Shown: positions 12,544 through 27,547, numbered from the stretch's first letter. The stretch is DNA of 64,000 nt from Dehalococcoidia bacterium (GCA_965116225.1 OZ220495.1:2340670-2404669); one strand, 5' to 3'. Notes: generated by a model from the sequence alone, not told the origin. Made by a program: numbers and translations.

Positions 12544-12743
12544 TCGCCAGACGAGTAGCGCATCGACCGCAGGCAGAGTCGCGACTGTGGGCGCGCGTTT
12601 GCAAGTCGCTAACCGCACGTTCCAGAGAGTATTACCTGATGGCGGCAGGTCGTCAATCCACTGCCGTGTTCGCCGTTCATACGCTGCTGCCAGCGCATCT
12701 GGCGAGAGCGCCAGGCGGCAACACGGAAGAGGAACGCACCGGA

Positions 12744-14308
12744 ATGAGTACCGACAAGTCATCGTTTGCGCCGCTGAACTGGATTGCTCGTCGAGCGAGG
12801 TCCGCCTATCACTGCGAGATCTCGTGCGACGACGCCTGTTTCAAGCCCGCGCCGAACCAAAGCGGCAACGAACCCTTCGCGGCGATTCTCAATCAACGCA
12901 TCTCCCGCCGCTCTCTGCTCAAGGCGACACATCGCCGGCGCGCCGTTGCGGCGTTCAGCACCTTACCGCTCGGCTCGCAAATCTTTGGCTCCGCACCCCT
13001 GGCCAGGTCCGCGAGCTCGGCGTCGAGCACGGTGGGTTTGTAAAGCACCCCGCACGATAACGAGGACGTGATCAACATCTCTGATGGCTACTGCTCGAAC
13101 GTCGTGATCCGCTGGGGCGACGGAGTCGTGCCCGGCGCGCCCGTATTCAGCCTCAGCGGCCAGACCGCTGAGGCTGCGGCCAAGCAGTTCGGGTCAACAA
13201 CTGCTACCACAACGGATTTTTCCTGCTGCTGCTTGGGCAAAGTCGTCGGGGTTTGCTCGGCGTCAACCACACGAATACACGAGCGGCATCGATATGTTCG
13301 GAGGACTACGATGCCGACAATCCGACCGCGGAGCAGGCCGCCATCGAGCTGGCCTCGCACGGCATATCGATCGTCGAAGTCTCGCGCGCCGCGATACGGT
13401 ATTCCCGCCGAGGGATCGCGTCGCAAGTGGGAGCGCTTCAACGCGCGATTCGATGTGAGCAAGGAGTCGAACGAGCCCAACCGGTTCGGCTATCTCGTTG
13501 AGATCGACCCATACGCCCCAAGCTTCACGCCTCGCAAACACATCGCGATGGGCCGCTTCAAGCACGAAGCGGCTACGGTTGCTCTCTCCGACGACGGACG
13601 CGCCGTCGTCTACTCGAGCGATGATCAGCGGTTCAACGACGACGGCACGGGCGACTGGTTGCCGTTGGTCGGCGGCAGCCGCGAATGGCCACCTGGACCA
13701 ACGCGGGCATCGCCACCTTTACCCGCGAGGCGGCCGAAGACGTGGATGGCGCCAACCCGAGCGGCCCGAACACACACGGACACATCCTCGAGCTGACCGA
13801 GAACGGCGGCGACCCGGTCGCGCGACGCTTCACGTGGGACATTTTCATCCTCTGCGGCGACCCGGCCGACTCGGAGCAGGAGACCTACTTCGCCGGCTTT
13901 GACAAGAGCGAGCTCGACGCGATTTCCGCGCCGGATAACCTCGCAGTCGATCTCAACGGCAACCTGTGGATCTCCACCGACGGCCAGCCGAGCAAGCTGG
14001 GGCAAGCCGATTCCATCTACGTCGTCCCGACCGCCGGGCCTGAGCGTGGGCGCATTCGCCGCTTCATGACCGGCGTGCCAAAGGGCGAGATGGCGGGACC
14101 CGAGTTCACCCCGGATTTCGCCACACTGTTCGTCAGCGTTCAGCATCCCGGCGAGGGCGGCTGGTTGGCAGAGCCAACCAGCAGATTCCCGGACGGCGAG
14201 TTCCCGCGCCCCAGCGTGGTCGCCGCTTACAAGAACGACGGCGGGGTCGTAGGCACGTGCCGTCGTCAGAGGGCGGACGGTGATATCGTGAGCCTCCCGC
14301 CCCCGTAG
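12744..14308 (+). pseudogene. phoX: Degraded PhoX-family (DUF839) Tat-exported alkaline phosphatase
   Basis: Fragments in several frames: Tat-like ISRRSLLK, VIRWGD, NEPNRFGYLVEIDP, MGRFKHE, NTHGHILEL, PDNLAVD, EMAGPEFTPD..LFVSVQHPGE. Internal deletions and frameshifts. Confidence 0.85.
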
Positions 14309-14373
14309 CTCAGGGGATAGAGCACCGGCCTCCGGAGCCGGGAGCGTAGGTTCGAATCCTACCGGGGGTACCA
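14299..14373 (+). tRNA. tRNA-Arg(CCG)
   Basis: Acceptor GCCCCCG/CGGGGGT + ACCA, D arm AGCTCAGGGGATAGAGC, anticodon arm CCGGC-CTCCGGA-GCCGG, T loop GGTTCGAATCC. Confidence 0.95.
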
Positions 14374-14435
14374 GCGCGATCCAGCAGCGACCGTCGCCGC
14401 AGATCCCCTCGCGGATCCGTCCTGCATTACTTGGC

Positions 14436-17756
<3,321 letters not shown>

Positions 17757-17760
17757 GCGG

Positions 17761-20686
17761 TCACTCCTGTTGGTCTGCGTCTTCGATCGCGAGCGCACCC
17801 TGCGACTCCGGCGCCGCCCGCCGCGCGCGAGCGATGCGATCGATCTCCTGCCATGACTGCGCCAGTGCGTTGAACGCCAGCGCGTCGGCCGAGCGCCGTC
17901 GACGGTCGCTGATCAGGTAGAGGCGGTAGGCGAGGTCGCGCGCCGACTCCGCCTTGCCGCCGAGCCGAGCCGCGAGCGCGCCCGCCGCCTGCTCGCTGTC
18001 CGACTCCAGCAGACGGATCAAGTGCTGCGTCATCTCCCAGACGGTCAGCCGCGCGTCGGCGGACGGGTCCCAGTCGGGATCGAGTTCGGACGGTTTGCGG
18101 ATGCGCACCTTGCCGCGCTTCGCTTCGATCACGCCGGCGTGGACGAGTCCCTCGACGCTTGTGTTCTTCGCTTTGGACAGCGTCTCGGCGATGCCGTACT
18201 CGCCCTCCGCATAACCGTGTTCGTCGAACCAGGTCAGCGCCCAGCGGCTGTCGGCGTCGAAATCGCCTTCCTGCTCCGTCAGCGCCTCATCGAGGACGGC
18301 GTTGATCAGTCCCAGCGCCTCGCCGACGGATACGGCGCTGCCATCGGCGTTGAGCACCCGGGTATAGCGCGTGAAGATCGCCATGCCGGGACCGATCGAT
18401 GCCTGCGCCAGGTCGACGGGGGCGATGTTGCTGCGCTGTAGTCTCGCCAGCGCCTCGGGGAATTCAGTTCTTAGCGCCTCAAGAAATTCGCGCCGCGTCG
18501 CCGTCGGCGCTTCCGCCGGCCGCGGTCGGCAACAAAGCACGATGCTCGATGCAAGCGCGTTTGCGTTGTTTGCATTCTGTCGCCCAGACTGCTCGGTGCG
18601 TACAGGCCAGGTGGCGGTAATGACGAAGCCCGCTTCGATCGCTGCCTGTAGAAAAGTCGCCCAGCCGCTGCTGGTTGCGCCATCAACAGTAGTTTCAGCT
18701 TGTTTGAAGGCGTAATAGATCGTCGCCGGAAAGACGTTATCGCTACCCCCCCCCCCTCTCTTCCAGCAAGCCGCGCGAGCGCCCGACGCATCCCGTCAAC
18801 GAAAAACTCGTCCGCTTTCTGTTTGGAACCATGCCGGTACGGCGTCGCGACCAGCTCCTCCCGCTTGGGCGTGACGAGGGTTGCGAACAGGTCGGGAAAT
18901 ATCTCGCTCAGCGTGCGCCGCAGCCAGACATAGAAGAAGTCCGACAGATCGGCATAGTTGATATTGTTGTAATAGGGCGGGTCGGTCGAAACCACTCGCA
19001 TGTCTGGTAGAAAGTCGGTGCCGTCAGACATGGCGTCGGCCTGGAACGCCGTTCCGGGTGTAGGGCCGGATGGAAAATTGAGTAATGAACTGGCTATCCA
19101 GTCGATATGCGAGAACCAATTTCGGCTCGACGACGAAAAGAAATTTGCCTCGGCGAAATCCCAAACCATGGGAATTGCTTGGCGGCCAAAAGCTCCCGCG
19201 ATCTTGTCGCTGGAGCTTTGCCACCTTGCTATCGAGCATCCGCTTTCAGCAGCCTTACTGACGGCGAGTCCTAGTAACGTTGCGACGGCCTCCGCATACG
19301 CTCTTGCTCCACTGCCAGCTTCGCGCAGCGGTGTGCCGTCAGCGCTCAGTCCGGCAGCGACCGCATCGCGCTCGATCTGCGCACGCGCCTCTGGTACAAG
19401 CTCTGTAAACGTAGTCAATCCTACCAGTTGGCGGTTAGTAAACAGCTTTCCCCACTGATCGAGCCCATAGGGGACACATGACCCACCAGTTAGGTGTGTA
19501 GGGACAATACCCTCTGGTCGCCACATTGGTACTGCGTCCGACGCTGTGAGCTCGTGTTCAGGCGTCGGTTCTAGGTAGATGCGCTGGCGATCACCATAAG
19601 CGACGATCGCCAGCAACCGTGTACTCATTCGCCTGGCTATCCCCTCTGCCTTGATGTAGTCCGGCGGAATCGGCGTTCCCGAGAGCAGACACCTGAAGTT
19701 CGCATCCTTAATCTCCGTACCTTTCTGCACTGTATCAGGCAGTGTCCCTGCTCTAACATTGAATCGATACTCCCGTCCCTCGATCACTGGCTCGACCCAA
19801 GCCTCTTTGCCGCGTCTCTTCGAGAGCACGAAGGTGGTAGCCAACGGCACGTCGACGTCGGCGAAGGCGGGGTTGGGGCTTTTGACTGTGCGCGCCCAGA
19901 GCCAGGCGATCACGGTTAACTCGCGACCCACGTAGCGCTCGAGATCGGGTCGCTCCCGCGCCATCTCCTCGGTGATCGATACCTTCGGATACAGATGCCC
20001 GATGCGGCGTTCCGCCTCGTCGCGCATCCACTTGCCGTAGTAGCGCGCATCCTCCGCCAGGCCCTCGGTGCCGCGCCAGTCGCGGTCCATCATGCGCTGG
20101 TCGGCGCACGACTCTGGGTTGATTGGCGGCTGGCCCGAGAATTTGGGCGGAATCTCGTTCATCGCCTTGTTGATCAACACAGCGACGGGGTTGAGATCCG
20201 AGGCGTAGGTTTCAAGCCCGAGCCGCTGCGCCTCGAGCGGCAGCGCGCCGCCGCCGGCGAAGGGATCGTGGAAGACGGGCGGCGTCTGCGGGTCGAACAG
20301 TTCTTGGGCGCGCGGATGCCCGGCGTTGTCGGCGCAGGCGCGCCGCCACGAGCGCCGAATCTCCTCGCGCGCCCGCTCCAGCACGTCCTCATTGGTCGTG
20401 CTTTCCCACAGCACCAGCTCTTCGATGATCCCGAACAGCCGCTCGCGCTCGCGCTCTTGCTCTGCTTCGGTGGGAAACAGCTCGGGGACAGCGGACGGAT
20501 CATCGACCATCTGGGCGAAGATTACTGCCCGCGCTGCCGCCAGCGGCCGTCGCGCCCACCATTTGTGCAACGTGTTTGGGTGTCCGCGAGCACCGCGATT
20601 TTCGCCTCCCGCCGCCTTGTTGATCGCATCTAGCGGCAGCGCCACCTCGATCAGCTTCGTTCGCGTCTTGATGGGCGCGTCCCCGG

Positions 20687-20690
<4 letters not shown>
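17761..20690 (-). CDS. DUF1156 adenine-specific DNA methyltransferase, frameshifted at a G11 tract (phase-OFF allele or read error)
   Basis: LIEVALPL..LHKWWARRPL, DPFAGGG (motif I), TDPPYY (motif IV). After the G tract the conserved FPATIYYAFKQ...GWATFL...TWPVRTE...NALASSIVLCCRPR continues in another frame to the stop at 17761. Confidence 0.87.
18746..18756 (-). repeat. Poly-G (G11 on coding strand) simple sequence repeat inside the methyltransferase
   Basis: 11 C on the plus strand at 18746-18756, the longest homopolymer I saw in the window. Coincides with the frameshift. Confidence 0.9.
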
Positions 20691-24274
<3,584 letters not shown>

Positions 24275-24305
24275 GTCGGTTTCCGTCCCCGCTGCTCACC
24301 CGCCG

Positions 24306-25139
24306 TCAATCGGCGGGATGCCAGCTGATCAACATACCCTGCGCCGACGCGCGCCAGGTCGGTGTGAAGATGTCGCCTTCGATTCCGCTGCGCTCGAACA
24401 ACTCGTCGAGGCGCGCCTCGATGTTCGCGGCGGCGTTGGAGTGGTCGGGCGCGCCGAGCTCGTCGAGCGCAAACTGGATCGCCTGCTCCTCGCTGCGCGG
24501 CAGCCGCTCCGGCCAGCTGAACGATTCATCGATCACCTGCGTGTCGGGCGCAATCCCGAGCTCCCGGATCACCGCCAGCAAATGTTGGAAGCCGGACGCG
24601 GGCGATTCCGCTTCGCCGTAGGCGATTTGGAACAGGCTCGCGTTCAGATTGGTCGGCGGAACGGTCCAGGTAAGGATCAGCACACACCGCCGCGCCGCCG
24701 CGTCCATTGCCCGAATGAACGGTTCGATGTCGTCGATGAAGTAGGTGACATCCGCGGTGAGTACGACGTCGGCGGTCACCGACTCCGACATGGGCCAGGC
24801 TGCGTCGAGCACGGCCGCATTGGCGATGCCATGTTCGGCGACGGCGATGCTGAATTGCGCTCGCATCGCCGCGGACGGCTCAACGTTCAGCAACGACGTC
24901 GCGCGCAGCGCCAGCGGCAATCCGATCCGACCAGCGCCACCGCCGATCTCGATTAGCTCGTCGTCGCTCTCGACATAACGTAGCGCTGCATTGAGCTGCG
25001 GCTCCGGCTCGCGCTGAGGATTGAATCGGTAGGTGCGCGCCCACTTGGACCAGTGCGATTCGCCCAGCGCCAGTCCCAGTCGCCGCTGTTGCGATTGCCG
25101 CGCTTGGGTCAGTGAGTTGTAGTGTTCCGCTGCATTCAT
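24306..25139 (-). CDS. Class I SAM-dependent methyltransferase
   Basis: IEIGGGAGR, NVEPSAAMR, ADVVLTADVTY. Start trimmed to MNAAEH. Confidence 0.75.
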   Translation of the reverse strand: MNAAEHYNSLTQARQSQQRRLGLALGESHWSKWARTYRFNPQREPEPQLNAALRYVESDDELIEIGGGAGRIGLPLALRATSLLNVEPSAAMRAQFSIAVAEHGIANAAVLDAAWPMSESVTADVVLTADVTYFIDDIEPFIRAMDAAARRCVLILTWTVPPTNLNASLFQIAYGEAESPASGFQHLLAVIRELGIAPDTQVIDESFSWPERLPRSEEQAIQFALDELGAPDHSNAAANIEARLDELFERSGIEGDIFTPTWRASAQGMLISWHPAD

Positions 25140-25237
25140 TGCAGTGCTGCCCCAGGCCGTGATCGTCATAACGCGGAGCGGTGATAGCGTAGGGCTTTGA
25201 GCGTATCGCCGTGAATGCGGCGCGGGAGGGAACCTGG

Positions 25238-26623
25238 GTGTCTCAGCGAGGCCGCAGCGCGAGGACGCGTCCGCAACGCCTGGCGCGTCGTCGGGCGTCG
25301 ATTCAAGGAATCGGCCGCAGCGGTAATAGCCGTTCCTGGCTGACGTCCCGATGGGTGCTGGGCACATTCGGCATCGTCGCCGCGGCGGCGCTGATCGCCG
25401 GACTTGTCGCCACCGGGTTCGGCGAAACGACGATTCAGCCGACTGCAGATCCGCCGCCGGTTCGACGCACGGGCTCCGAGGTCGTGACCGGCGCGGTCGA
25501 GGGCAAGCCAACCTGGTCTGCGCCGCCGGCATTCGAGTTGAGCGCGGACGTCGATTATGCCGCCGAGGTTGTATTGGCGGACGGCCAGGCCATCGCCATC
25601 GATCTGTTTGAGACGCAGGCGCCTCAGCATGTGAACAACTTCGTCTTCCTGGCCAAGCAGGGTTTCTATGACGGCCTGACCATCCATGAGGTCCTGCCAG
25701 GCGTGCGGGTGCGAGCGGGAGATCCCGCCGCCGATGGCAGTGGCGGCGCAGGCTATACCCTGCCCGACGAACCGACGACCGAAGAGAACGAAGCGGCGTT
25801 GACCTCTGATGGCGTGGGCGTCGTATCCATGTGGCGCGACGACTTGGGCGCGTCTTCCTCGCAATTCGTCATCTCGCTTGCGGAGCAGGCTGAAGCGGTC
25901 GATGGAGCGACCGCCTTCGGCCAGGTCACCGGCGGTCTCGATCAGCTGTATGCGCTTGATTCCCGCGATCCGGCGGCTATTCCGGCACCCGTCTCAGGGG
26001 CCAGGATCGAGACGATTCGCATCACCGAGGACGGTGAGGTCGTGAGCGCGGGTGGATTGAGCGTTGCAGTCGAGGAGCCGACGCCGCTTGAGCCTGATCT
26101 GTCGCTGTCCTGGGATGCGCCGCCGGCGTTCGCGCTTGTGGATGGGGTCGACTATCGCGCGACGATCGAAATGGTCGGCGGCGAGACGGTCGAGATCGAT
26201 CTCTATGAAGACCTGGCTCCGCAGCACGTCAACAACTTCGTCTTCCTCGCTCGCGAGGGCTTCTACGACGCAGTGACCTTTCATCGCATCATTCACGGAT
26301 TCATGGCGCAAGGCGGCGATCCGACCGGTTTGGGCGCGGGAGGTCCCGGTTACGCTATCGATGCCGAGTTCAACGACACCAAACATGTCCGCGGCGTCGT
26401 CTCGATGGCGCGCTCTGGCGATCCCAACTCAGCCGGCAGTCAGTTCTTCATCGTCTACGACGCGGCCCCGCATCTCGACGGGGGGTACACCGCGTTTGGC
26501 GAAGTGATCGCCGGAATGGACGTTGTCGATCGCTTCCCAGCTCGGGATCCCGCGGATCCAACGGAGCCGCCGGGCCCGCAGATTGCCACGATCACGATCA
26601 GCGAAATCGCCCAAACTGAGTGA
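25238..26623 (+). CDS. Membrane-anchored tandem cyclophilin-type peptidyl-prolyl isomerase (two domains)
   Basis: N-terminal TM (WVLGTFGIVAAAALIAGLVA), two APQHVNNFVFLA..GFYD repeats, second with FHRIIHGFMAQGGDP..SAGSQFFI. Confidence 0.85.
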   Translation: MSQRGRSARTRPQRLARRRASIQGIGRSGNSRSWLTSRWVLGTFGIVAAAALIAGLVATGFGETTIQPTADPPPVRRTGSEVVTGAVEGKPTWSAPPAFELSADVDYAAEVVLADGQAIAIDLFETQAPQHVNNFVFLAKQGFYDGLTIHEVLPGVRVRAGDPAADGSGGAGYTLPDEPTTEENEAALTSDGVGVVSMWRDDLGASSSQFVISLAEQAEAVDGATAFGQVTGGLDQLYALDSRDPAAIPAPVSGARIETIRITEDGEVVSAGGLSVAVEEPTPLEPDLSLSWDAPPAFALVDGVDYRATIEMVGGETVEIDLYEDLAPQHVNNFVFLAREGFYDAVTFHRIIHGFMAQGGDPTGLGAGGPGYAIDAEFNDTKHVRGVVSMARSGDPNSAGSQFFIVYDAAPHLDGGYTAFGEVIAGMDVVDRFPARDPADPTEPPGPQIATITISEIAQTE

Positions 26624-26662
26624 TCCGCGGGCGTAACAGTGTCCACAGCGGCGGAGGACTAC

Positions 26663-27178
26663 ATGACCACATACAGCAAGCGTCCGAAGATGGCACTCAA
26701 GGATGGCGTTAGCTACGGTGCCACGATTGAGATGGAGGACAGCGAGACGATCGAGATCGATCTGCTGCCCGACATTGCGCCCGAGCATGTGAACTCGTTC
26801 GTCTTTCTTGCCAACGAGGGCTACTACGACGGCGTCACCTTCCATCGCATCATCCACGGGTTTATGGCGCAGGGCGGCGACCCGTCTGGACGCGGCAGCG
26901 GCGGCCCCGGCTACACGTTGCCGGCCGAGTTCAACGACACAAAACACGTCCGCGGCATTGTCTCGATGGCGCGCACTAGCGATCCTAACTCGGCGGGCAG
27001 TCAGTTTTTCATCGTGTACGCTACAGCCGATTACCTCGACGGTCAGTACACTGCCTTTGGGCGCGTAACGTCGGGGATGGACATCGTCGAAGCGTTCCCC
27101 GAGCGCGACCCGCAGCGCGCCCGCGAGCCGGGTCCGCGCATGAAGCGCGTGCGGATCACCGAGTCGCAGGTGTCATAG
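26663..27178 (+). CDS. Cyclophilin-type peptidyl-prolyl isomerase
   Basis: FHRIIHGFMAQGGDP, SMAR, SAGSQFFI, LDGQYTAFG. GGAGG RBS. Confidence 0.92.
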   Translation: MTTYSKRPKMALKDGVSYGATIEMEDSETIEIDLLPDIAPEHVNSFVFLANEGYYDGVTFHRIIHGFMAQGGDPSGRGSGGPGYTLPAEFNDTKHVRGIVSMARTSDPNSAGSQFFIVYATADYLDGQYTAFGRVTSGMDIVEAFPERDPQRAREPGPRMKRVRITESQVS

Positions 27179-27207
27179 CCCAACGCATCTTGCTGAGACC
27201 TCGCCTG

Positions 27208-27459
27208 ATGTCCTCGCCGCCGCCTGAGATTCCGAAGATCCCGCCGCTTGCGGTTGTGCTCCGCGTGGTCTCGATTCTCGGCATGGGGTTGGCCTGCTCC
27301 GGCTTCGTGCTGGCGCTGGTCGCAGCCGAGTGGTGGTGGGCGGTGGGCACTGGTGCCGCCTTCGTGCCCTTCATGATGATCATGGGTATCGTCGACCGTC
27401 TTATCCCGGACGTATCGGAGTGGACCGCCGAGCACGCGCTGCCTCGGGATCAGGAATAG
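27208..27459 (+). CDS. Small two-TM membrane protein, unknown function
   Basis: Two hydrophobic segments, co-oriented just after the PPIase genes. Confidence 0.6.
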   Translation: MSSPPPEIPKIPPLAVVLRVVSILGMGLACSGFVLALVAAEWWWAVGTGAAFVPFMMIMGIVDRLIPDVSEWTAEHALPRDQE

Positions 27460-27547
27460 CGCAGGCATCTACTGCTGCCTGTATTGCTGTGACAGTACCC
27501 GGCGATTCCGGGATGTGCGCCCGTCGAGATGCTTCGCCGAACCGACG

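Follow-up and report, generated by a model that had tools for sequence, protein, structure and literature searches.

A G11 run in the hmaB methylase gene of a Chloroflexota Hma operon as a candidate phase-variable switch

Does a long guanine run inside a methylase gene mark a dead gene, a miscounted base or a switch? The question is raised by hmaB, the DUF1156 methylase gene of a predicted defence operon of the Hma type, which lies in a 64,000-nucleotide (nt) stretch of a Dehalococcoidia bacterium genome (GCA_965116225.1 OZ220495.1:2340670-2404669). This whole stretch is called the window here, and positions without a prefix are counted from its first letter. The window is part of a 2.60-Mb single-contig genome with 64% G+C, belonging to an uncultured Chloroflexota bacterium. 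A sequence-only reading had proposed that a run of eleven Gs switches hmaB, and with it the operon, on and off at random. The follow-up analysis indicates that the run is probably such a contingency locus, operated by changes in run length. This reading rests on the frame logic of the gene, the otherwise intact operon, polymorphism between samples, and the enrichment and maintenance of similar runs in defence genes.

Reading frame of hmaB around the G11 run

On the minus strand, hmaB reads GGAAGAGA, followed by G11 and then TAGC. Residues 1-644 of the assembled product belong to a genuine N6-adenine methyltransferase with a DUF1156 domain (Pfam, E 2.4e-27) and with FAGGG and DPPY motifs, while the final 92 codons of the 739-amino-acid (aa) open reading frame (ORF) are out-of-frame, arginine-rich junk. 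Adding one G or removing two opens a frame that reads GGGGSDNVFPATIYYAFKQ... and continues without a stop until 17761. The 327 codons of this downstream part score 410 bits against the HmaB profile, and the full-length enzyme would comprise 976 aa with G12 (644 + 5 + 327) and 975 aa with G9. Translation thus confirms the earlier proposal that G11 breaks the 739-aa frame and that G9 or G12 restores a product of 975 or 976 aa ending at the 17761 stop. The gene contains a single frame change, placed exactly at the run, and is otherwise intact: the HmaB profile is fully covered over two frames (4-646 and 651-958), with no further stop or shift. With hmaA and hmaC intact as well, the view that the run is the sole lesion in the operon holds. 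G11 is also, as had been suspected, the longest homopolymer of the window and the only one exceeding 6 nt in the whole 64 kb. Dinucleotide-preserving shuffles of the window yielded a mean of 0.03 G11 runs per window, with at least one run in 2 of 100 shuffles.

The origin of the run can be read from its surroundings. In an alignment with 54 full-length homologues, the two hmaB fragments abut without a gap (LAGR against LANR, SDNVFP against SHPSLP), leaving 14 nt of inserted material, GA + G11 + T, between codons that adjoin in the homologues. By this sequence comparison the run is a lineage-specific insertion. The spacing from a GM motif to the IYYAFK anchor amounts to 18 residues in all 170 anchor-matched loci (of 188 homologue loci), and so the segment does not vary in length as a loop might. 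A homologue with 68% identity, modelled with AlphaFold at moderate confidence (mean predicted local distance difference test score (pLDDT) 68.7, predicted template modelling score 0.40, local pLDDT 63-70), places the insertion site at the end of helix 624-645, before a six-residue connection to strand 652-658. The earlier suggestion of a glycine-tolerant loop is thus weakly backed: the model has a helix end or loop at the site, yet the spacing there is constant among the anchored homologues. By the same model, the OFF product would lack strand 652-658, core strands 685-694 and 711-719, and the helical C-terminal third. With the final three core strands of the methylase fold and the entire helical region at the C terminus gone, we infer that it would be unable to methylate.

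Homologues elsewhere lack a run at the hmaB site. Among 173 homologous genes from other lineages, none carries a G/C run of at least 10 nt except for one same-genus relative. Looking for the tract in DUF1156 orthologues, as had been suggested earlier, showed no run at this site but long runs inside two same-genus DUF1156 genes. No near-identical copy of hmaB was found: the best match reached 65% identity among species-representative genomes, 64% among Joint Genome Institute metagenome contigs and, apart from the window's own 739-aa product, 68% in a set of 5.8 billion proteins. This rules out a comparison of orthologues at the strain level.

Run lengths among samples and across the genome and genus

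Run lengths in different samples were compared on Logan contigs only, from three public runs (X1 to X3, samples S1 to S3) of one study. X1 provides a 1417-nt contig with a word depth of about 207, identical to the window across 18465-19200, in which the majority sequence has C11. A 560-nt contig of X2, with a depth of about 2250, shows no difference in 18300-18746; it carries 8 extra Cs behind 18745 and C>T changes at 18754 and 18755. On the coding strand, this allele has an extra GAA and G16 (three extra bases), which brings the TAG into frame and represents another OFF state. In X3, one contig ends inside the run and the next starts inside it, and the contigs do not give its length. A second, low-depth contig of X2 (depth 4.6) bears a still longer, interrupted C run. 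This contig and the X3 breaks may reflect heterogeneity within a sample or, equally, sequencing artefacts on G/C runs, and they are not counted as evidence. Of the four single-nucleotide polymorphisms (SNPs) that distinguish the samples, three are silent at the protein level, among them the one downstream of the run. We conclude that at least one population truly has G11 and that the flanks change much more slowly than the run itself. The proposed hypermutable site is real, as far as contigs can tell, in that its length differs among samples with near-identical flanking sequence.

The run is one of many in its genome. Counts of C runs fall from 4938 at length 4 through 905, 126, 23 and 9 to 4 at length 9, and then rise to 6, 6, 6 and 9 at lengths 10 to 13. 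Homopolymer lengths in this genome are accordingly bimodal, the second mode lying at 10-13, and the runs reach G23. Across the 2.6 Mb there are 77 runs of at least 8 nt and 56 G/C runs of at least 10 nt. Methylase, restriction or abortive-infection genes make up 8 of the 18 other annotated loci with a run in mid-gene. An ORF test on hmaB and eight defence genes found 6 out of frame, 2 in frame and 1 ambiguous (Table 1). Two Eco57I-like paralogues, 82% identical before the run and 63% after it, carry their runs at one shared codon that separates the methylase part from the specificity part. Retention of the run despite such divergence speaks for maintenance and not for mere tolerance.

A surface-protein family is marked by two recurring run flanks, one next to a TTGAC box, the other where the coding region begins. 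Paired runs lie 140-175 nt apart, for example at G000:C1 140960/141099, 175193/175336, 453436/453612, 487793/487967 and 519161/519327. The first flank of such pairs, TTTTTTGAC + Gn + TACGGCGAT, resembles a promoter spacer, and the second, CAACCAAATTATT + Gn + CAGCGCT, resembles a coding start.

Similar runs extend to the genus. At least one G11 occurs in each of the 37 genus genomes, as found by a pattern search whose reversed-pattern control is uninformative for a homopolymer. A G/C run of at least 9 nt lies inside the gene in 2 of 21 same-genus DUF1156 loci. One of these runs, a C11 in the hmaB of genome G021, encodes a proline run and lies in a different loop from the run in the window. The hmaB of genome G033 is decayed, with several lesions. 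The run of the window belongs to a set of long G/C runs that spans the genome and the genus and is concentrated in genes for methylases, restriction and surface proteins.

Switch, scar or miscount

As a contingency locus, hmaB would change its run length through slipped-strand mispairing during replication. Lengths divisible by three (G9, G12, G15) would give the full enzyme of 975-977 aa. Lengths of 2 modulo 3, such as G11, would append the 92 junk codons, and lengths of 1 modulo 3 would stop translation immediately at the adjoining TAG. In the genome consensus and in one sample, hmaB is OFF. By analogy with pglX of the bacteriophage exclusion (BREX) family and with Type III mod, this state would silence self-marking and probably the target recognition of the whole system; lost translational coupling may also lower hmaC. 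Switching would presumably be reversible and would act on methylation or defence, so that a symbiont population would be split at random, with defended or methylated cells on one side and undefended or unmethylated ones on the other.

Several observations weigh against a working switch. No in-frame allele was seen among the contigs of the three samples, and both resolved alleles (G11 in S1, G16 with three further bases in S2) are out of frame, an outcome with a probability of about 4 in 9 by chance alone. The contig break of X3 at the run may have other causes. Given the constant spacing in homologues, an in-frame form with 4-5 extra residues may itself be impaired. The genome encodes MutS and MutL (7 of 7 MutS relatives bearing an organism name are from Chloroflexi or Chloroflexota) and thus offers no special mutator background. 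Finally, in the only experiment found, HmaA of Halomonas meridiana alone protected Escherichia coli against T4, and phage raised on cells that overexpress HmaB showed no change in behaviour (PMC11232893); methylation of DNA by HmaB, and a need for it in defence, are therefore putative.

Much of this would also be expected of a dead gene with an unstable scar, in which a poly-G insertion, of a type common in the mutation spectrum of this lineage, inactivated hmaB, the length differences are neutral drift and runs pile up in defence genes for no other reason than that these are dispensable. Two resolved alleles that are both OFF, an insertion that breaks a spacing kept in every anchored homologue, and the OFF state of 6 of the 8 run-bearing defence genes with a clear state all agree with it, the last also fitting relaxed selection. 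The genome does tolerate pseudogenes, and one of them, phoX, stands beside the operon. Against such decay, neither the 2.9 kb of hmaB nor hmaA and hmaC show a second lesion, and the downstream codons have stayed open and recognizable to the profile. The truly decayed genes differ in this respect, as phoX and the hmaB of G033 bear several lesions each, whereas the hmaB of the window bears only one. The Eco57I-like paralogues keep an uninterrupted run at the same site, in one case in frame; the runs of the surface-protein family sit at fixed, functionally apt places, and SNPs between samples are mostly synonymous. On balance, a dead gene appears unlikely, although it is the strongest of the rival readings.

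A counting error, with G12 or G9 as the true, in-frame run and G11 as a mistake in homopolymer calling, is very improbable. Runs of 11 nt are error-prone on every sequencing platform, and the genome, from an uncultured organism, was assembled as a single contig. Two observations argue that G11 is not an assembly slip: the X1 contig, from an independent contig set, repeats C11 at substantial depth, and shorter runs show no excess of frame breaks, with signatures at 41 of 411 runs of 6-7 nt against 184 of 1800 random G/C runs of 3-5 nt. X1 and the assembly may share a source sample, which counts against the favoured reading. The deeply covered allele of X2 is different and likewise out of frame. 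There is also a slim chance that the frame is restored at the level of expression, through slippage of RNA polymerase or ribosome in some products, making the OFF state leaky; this would be compatible with a phase-variable switch. Long homopolymers are known sites of transcriptional slippage, and the downstream frame is intact. No stimulatory structure or conserved shift site points to programmed recoding, and the homologues have no run here.

Beyond hmaB, a wider and more tentative picture is possible, that of a genus-wide poly-G/C "defence phasome". Genes for restriction, BREX-related defence (Hma among them) and abortive infection, at least nine in all and each with its own run, together with a run-switched surface-protein family, might allow one clonal symbiont population to deal out combinations of immunity, methylome and surface continually. 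The runs could arise anew through short insertions, including at sites of conserved structure, and the Hma methylase could act as the specificity subunit without which the nuclease leaves the DNA of its own cell alone.

The Hma operon, its surroundings and known systems

The operon was identified with Pfam and PADLOC profiles. Its genes follow one another on the minus strand in the order hmaA (SNF2 helicase), hmaB (methylase) and hmaC (DUF499 ATPase), which corrects the earlier reading. The stop of hmaA overlaps the start of hmaB (ATGA), and the listed start of hmaC overlaps the in-frame end of hmaB by 38 nt. HmaA reaches 1648 bits against its PADLOC profile and HmaC 1066 bits (profile 2-818 of 941), and the Pfam matches of hmaC are HEPN_Swt1 (E 7.5e-31) and DUF499 (E 1.1e-33). 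The assignment of the run-bearing gene to a DUF1156 methylase within a DUF499/DUF1156/SNF2 defence operon is thereby upheld by Pfam and PADLOC matches to all three Hma genes. A nuclease-fused Swi2/Snf2 helicase, a DUF1156 methylase (interrupted by the run) and a HEPN-fused DUF499 ATPase are all present. From its gene content, the operon is Hma, a Type-1 DUF499-centred BREX-related defence system, with a putative anti-phage role. NCBIfam gave only sub-threshold matches for the operon and none for the 408-aa ORF upstream of it.

This ORF lies 32 nt upstream of hmaA and has only weak, sub-threshold matches to Methyltransf_16 and mad2. Because the 5′ end of a cyclophilin ORF on the opposite strand runs into it, its true extent is uncertain. 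A scan of 13500-27500 for promoters and terminators gave no usable signal, with no promoter-like site and with 10 terminator-like sites where 8.1 were expected. The operon is flanked by housekeeping genes (an aminotransferase, a Mg-chelatase-like ATPase, a cyclophilin and a CoA transferase). The neighbouring phoX contains an in-frame stop and one or more frame changes and lacks its middle (profile 262-365); none of this damage falls on a long homopolymer.

Table 1. Features of the hmaB locus and of run-bearing genes in its genome and genus (prefixed positions name genome and contig)
Feature	Position	Strand	Description
G11 homopolymer (C11 on plus strand)	18746..18756	minus	From sequence; slippery run, core of the 14-nt insertion
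hmaB as assembled, 739 aa	18471..20690	minus	ORF; HmaB profile 4-646, E 5.9e-294
hmaB 3′ part, frame of G9/G12, 327 codons + stop	17761..18744	minus	HmaB profile 651-958, E 3.2e-123
TAG directly 3′ of the run	18743..18745	minus	In frame at lengths of 1 modulo 3 (G10, G13, G16): immediate truncation
hmaA, 1195 aa	20687..24274	minus	SNF2-rel_dom, Helicase_C, C-terminal NOV_C (PD-(D/E)XK-type); HmaA profile 1-1172/1176
hmaC, 1120 aa	14436..17798	minus	N-terminal HEPN_Swt1 fused to DUF499 (BrxC-like) ATPase
Upstream ORF, 408 aa	24306..25532	minus	No family above cut-off; operon membership uncertain
phoX (alkaline phosphatase) pseudogene beside the operon	about 12740-14308	plus	Several lesions
Eco57I/MmeI_Mtase + TaqI_C paralogue (L116)	G000:C1 526810-526822		G13, out of frame
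Eco57I/MmeI_Mtase + TaqI_C paralogue (L117)	G000:C1 540695-540706		G12, in frame
MmeI-type enzyme (L126)	G000:C1 2478184-2478194		C11, out of frame
Type ISP enzyme (L122)	G000:C1 1557068-1557077		G10, out of frame
N6_N4 methylase-HNH gene (L113)	G000:C1 373409-373419		G11, out of frame
HEAT-N6_N4 methylase (L114)	G000:C1 403847-403859		C13, in frame
Mrr-like/AIPR-AbiU gene (L124)	G000:C1 2000201-2000209		T9, out of frame
Second DUF499 ATPase (L127)	G000:C1 1663524-1663531		C8, frame state ambiguous
G021 hmaB (L015)	G021:C1 about 257284-257295		Frameshifted at C11, profile split 461/462
G022 DUF1156 methylase, more distant (L022)	G022:C1 about 1585040-1585060		In-frame G17

Other repeats were seen in passing. 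A gene for a 1260-aa protein built from about 20 RCC1-type repeats contains an in-frame C14 at G000:C1 2170882-2170895 (L125). On the same contig are (CT)17 at 97129-97162, AACAC x22 followed by ACAAC x15 at 396433-396617, a 7-mer x17 at 637668-786 and CTTG x8 at 2223983-2224014. Such long simple repeats are possible further switch sites.

In a 2026 survey, Hma is renamed Type-1 DUF499-centred BREX-related, and its methylase is said to mirror the methylases of Type-3 BREX (passage in PMC12839542). The operon of the window resembles the Hma systems described so far in its three adjacent, co-oriented genes, and its HEPN-fused ATPase and nuclease-fused helicase are the commonest variants in the published descriptions (PMC12839542 and PMC11232893). 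The main texts of these two papers, which both cover DUF1156 together with DUF499, contain neither "phase vari" nor "homopolymer", and that of PMC11232893 contains neither "frameshift" nor "slippage"; the supplements may list frameshifted loci. Literature listings on Chloroflexi phase variation, on BREX systems made phase-variable by simple sequence repeats and on restriction-modification in sponge Dehalococcoidia returned nothing relevant. The earlier remark that phase variation had not been described for this family is consistent with the main texts of the two Hma papers, and the same trick is in print for the related pglX.

If the switch is real, phase variation would be extended to the Hma, or DUF499-centred BREX-related, family, whose methylase has had no demonstrated role so far. 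It would also reach an uncultured lineage of the Chloroflexota, where independent switching seems to affect many defence genes. Textbook examples of phase-variable methylases and restriction come from a few cultured, host-adapted pathogens, with a single case, pglX, in the BREX family. A switchable methylase also offers a hint on the Hma mechanism, as it would be affordable only if restriction depends on the methylase or if unmethylated self DNA is never targeted. Long G/C runs in metagenome-assembled genomes of this kind should be neither silently corrected nor annotated as pseudogenes. The interest lies in the pattern of runs more than in the single hmaB gene.

In the Type III mod, Type I hsd and Type IIG genes of host-adapted pathogens, a repeat in the methylase or fused restriction-methylase gene toggles the reading frame. 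The switched subunit in these systems is also needed by restriction, and the OFF state is therefore not suicidal. Like these phase-variable methylases, hmaB has its repeat in the methylase gene, and the same genome has runs in MmeI-like, Eco57I-like and Type ISP genes. Phasevarions, in contrast, belong to cultured pathogens with a measured switch and regulon, whereas the present organism is an uncultured environmental or symbiotic member of the Chloroflexota.

The closest precedent of the hmaB run is the G tract of pglX. In the Pgl system (BREX type 2) of Streptomyces coelicolor, phase variation is attributed to this tract, and phage resistance switches at 1e-2 to 1e-4, as stated in a passage of PMC4365076 citing Sumby and Smith 2003. 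Both runs lie inside the N6-adenine methyltransferase gene of a BREX-family defence operon. The two systems differ in their parts, as Hma consists of a helicase-nuclease, a DUF1156 methylase and a HEPN-DUF499 ATPase and lacks PglZ, PglW and BrxL. The hmaB methylase belongs to another subfamily and another phylum, and switching, which has been demonstrated in Pgl, is only proposed for Hma.

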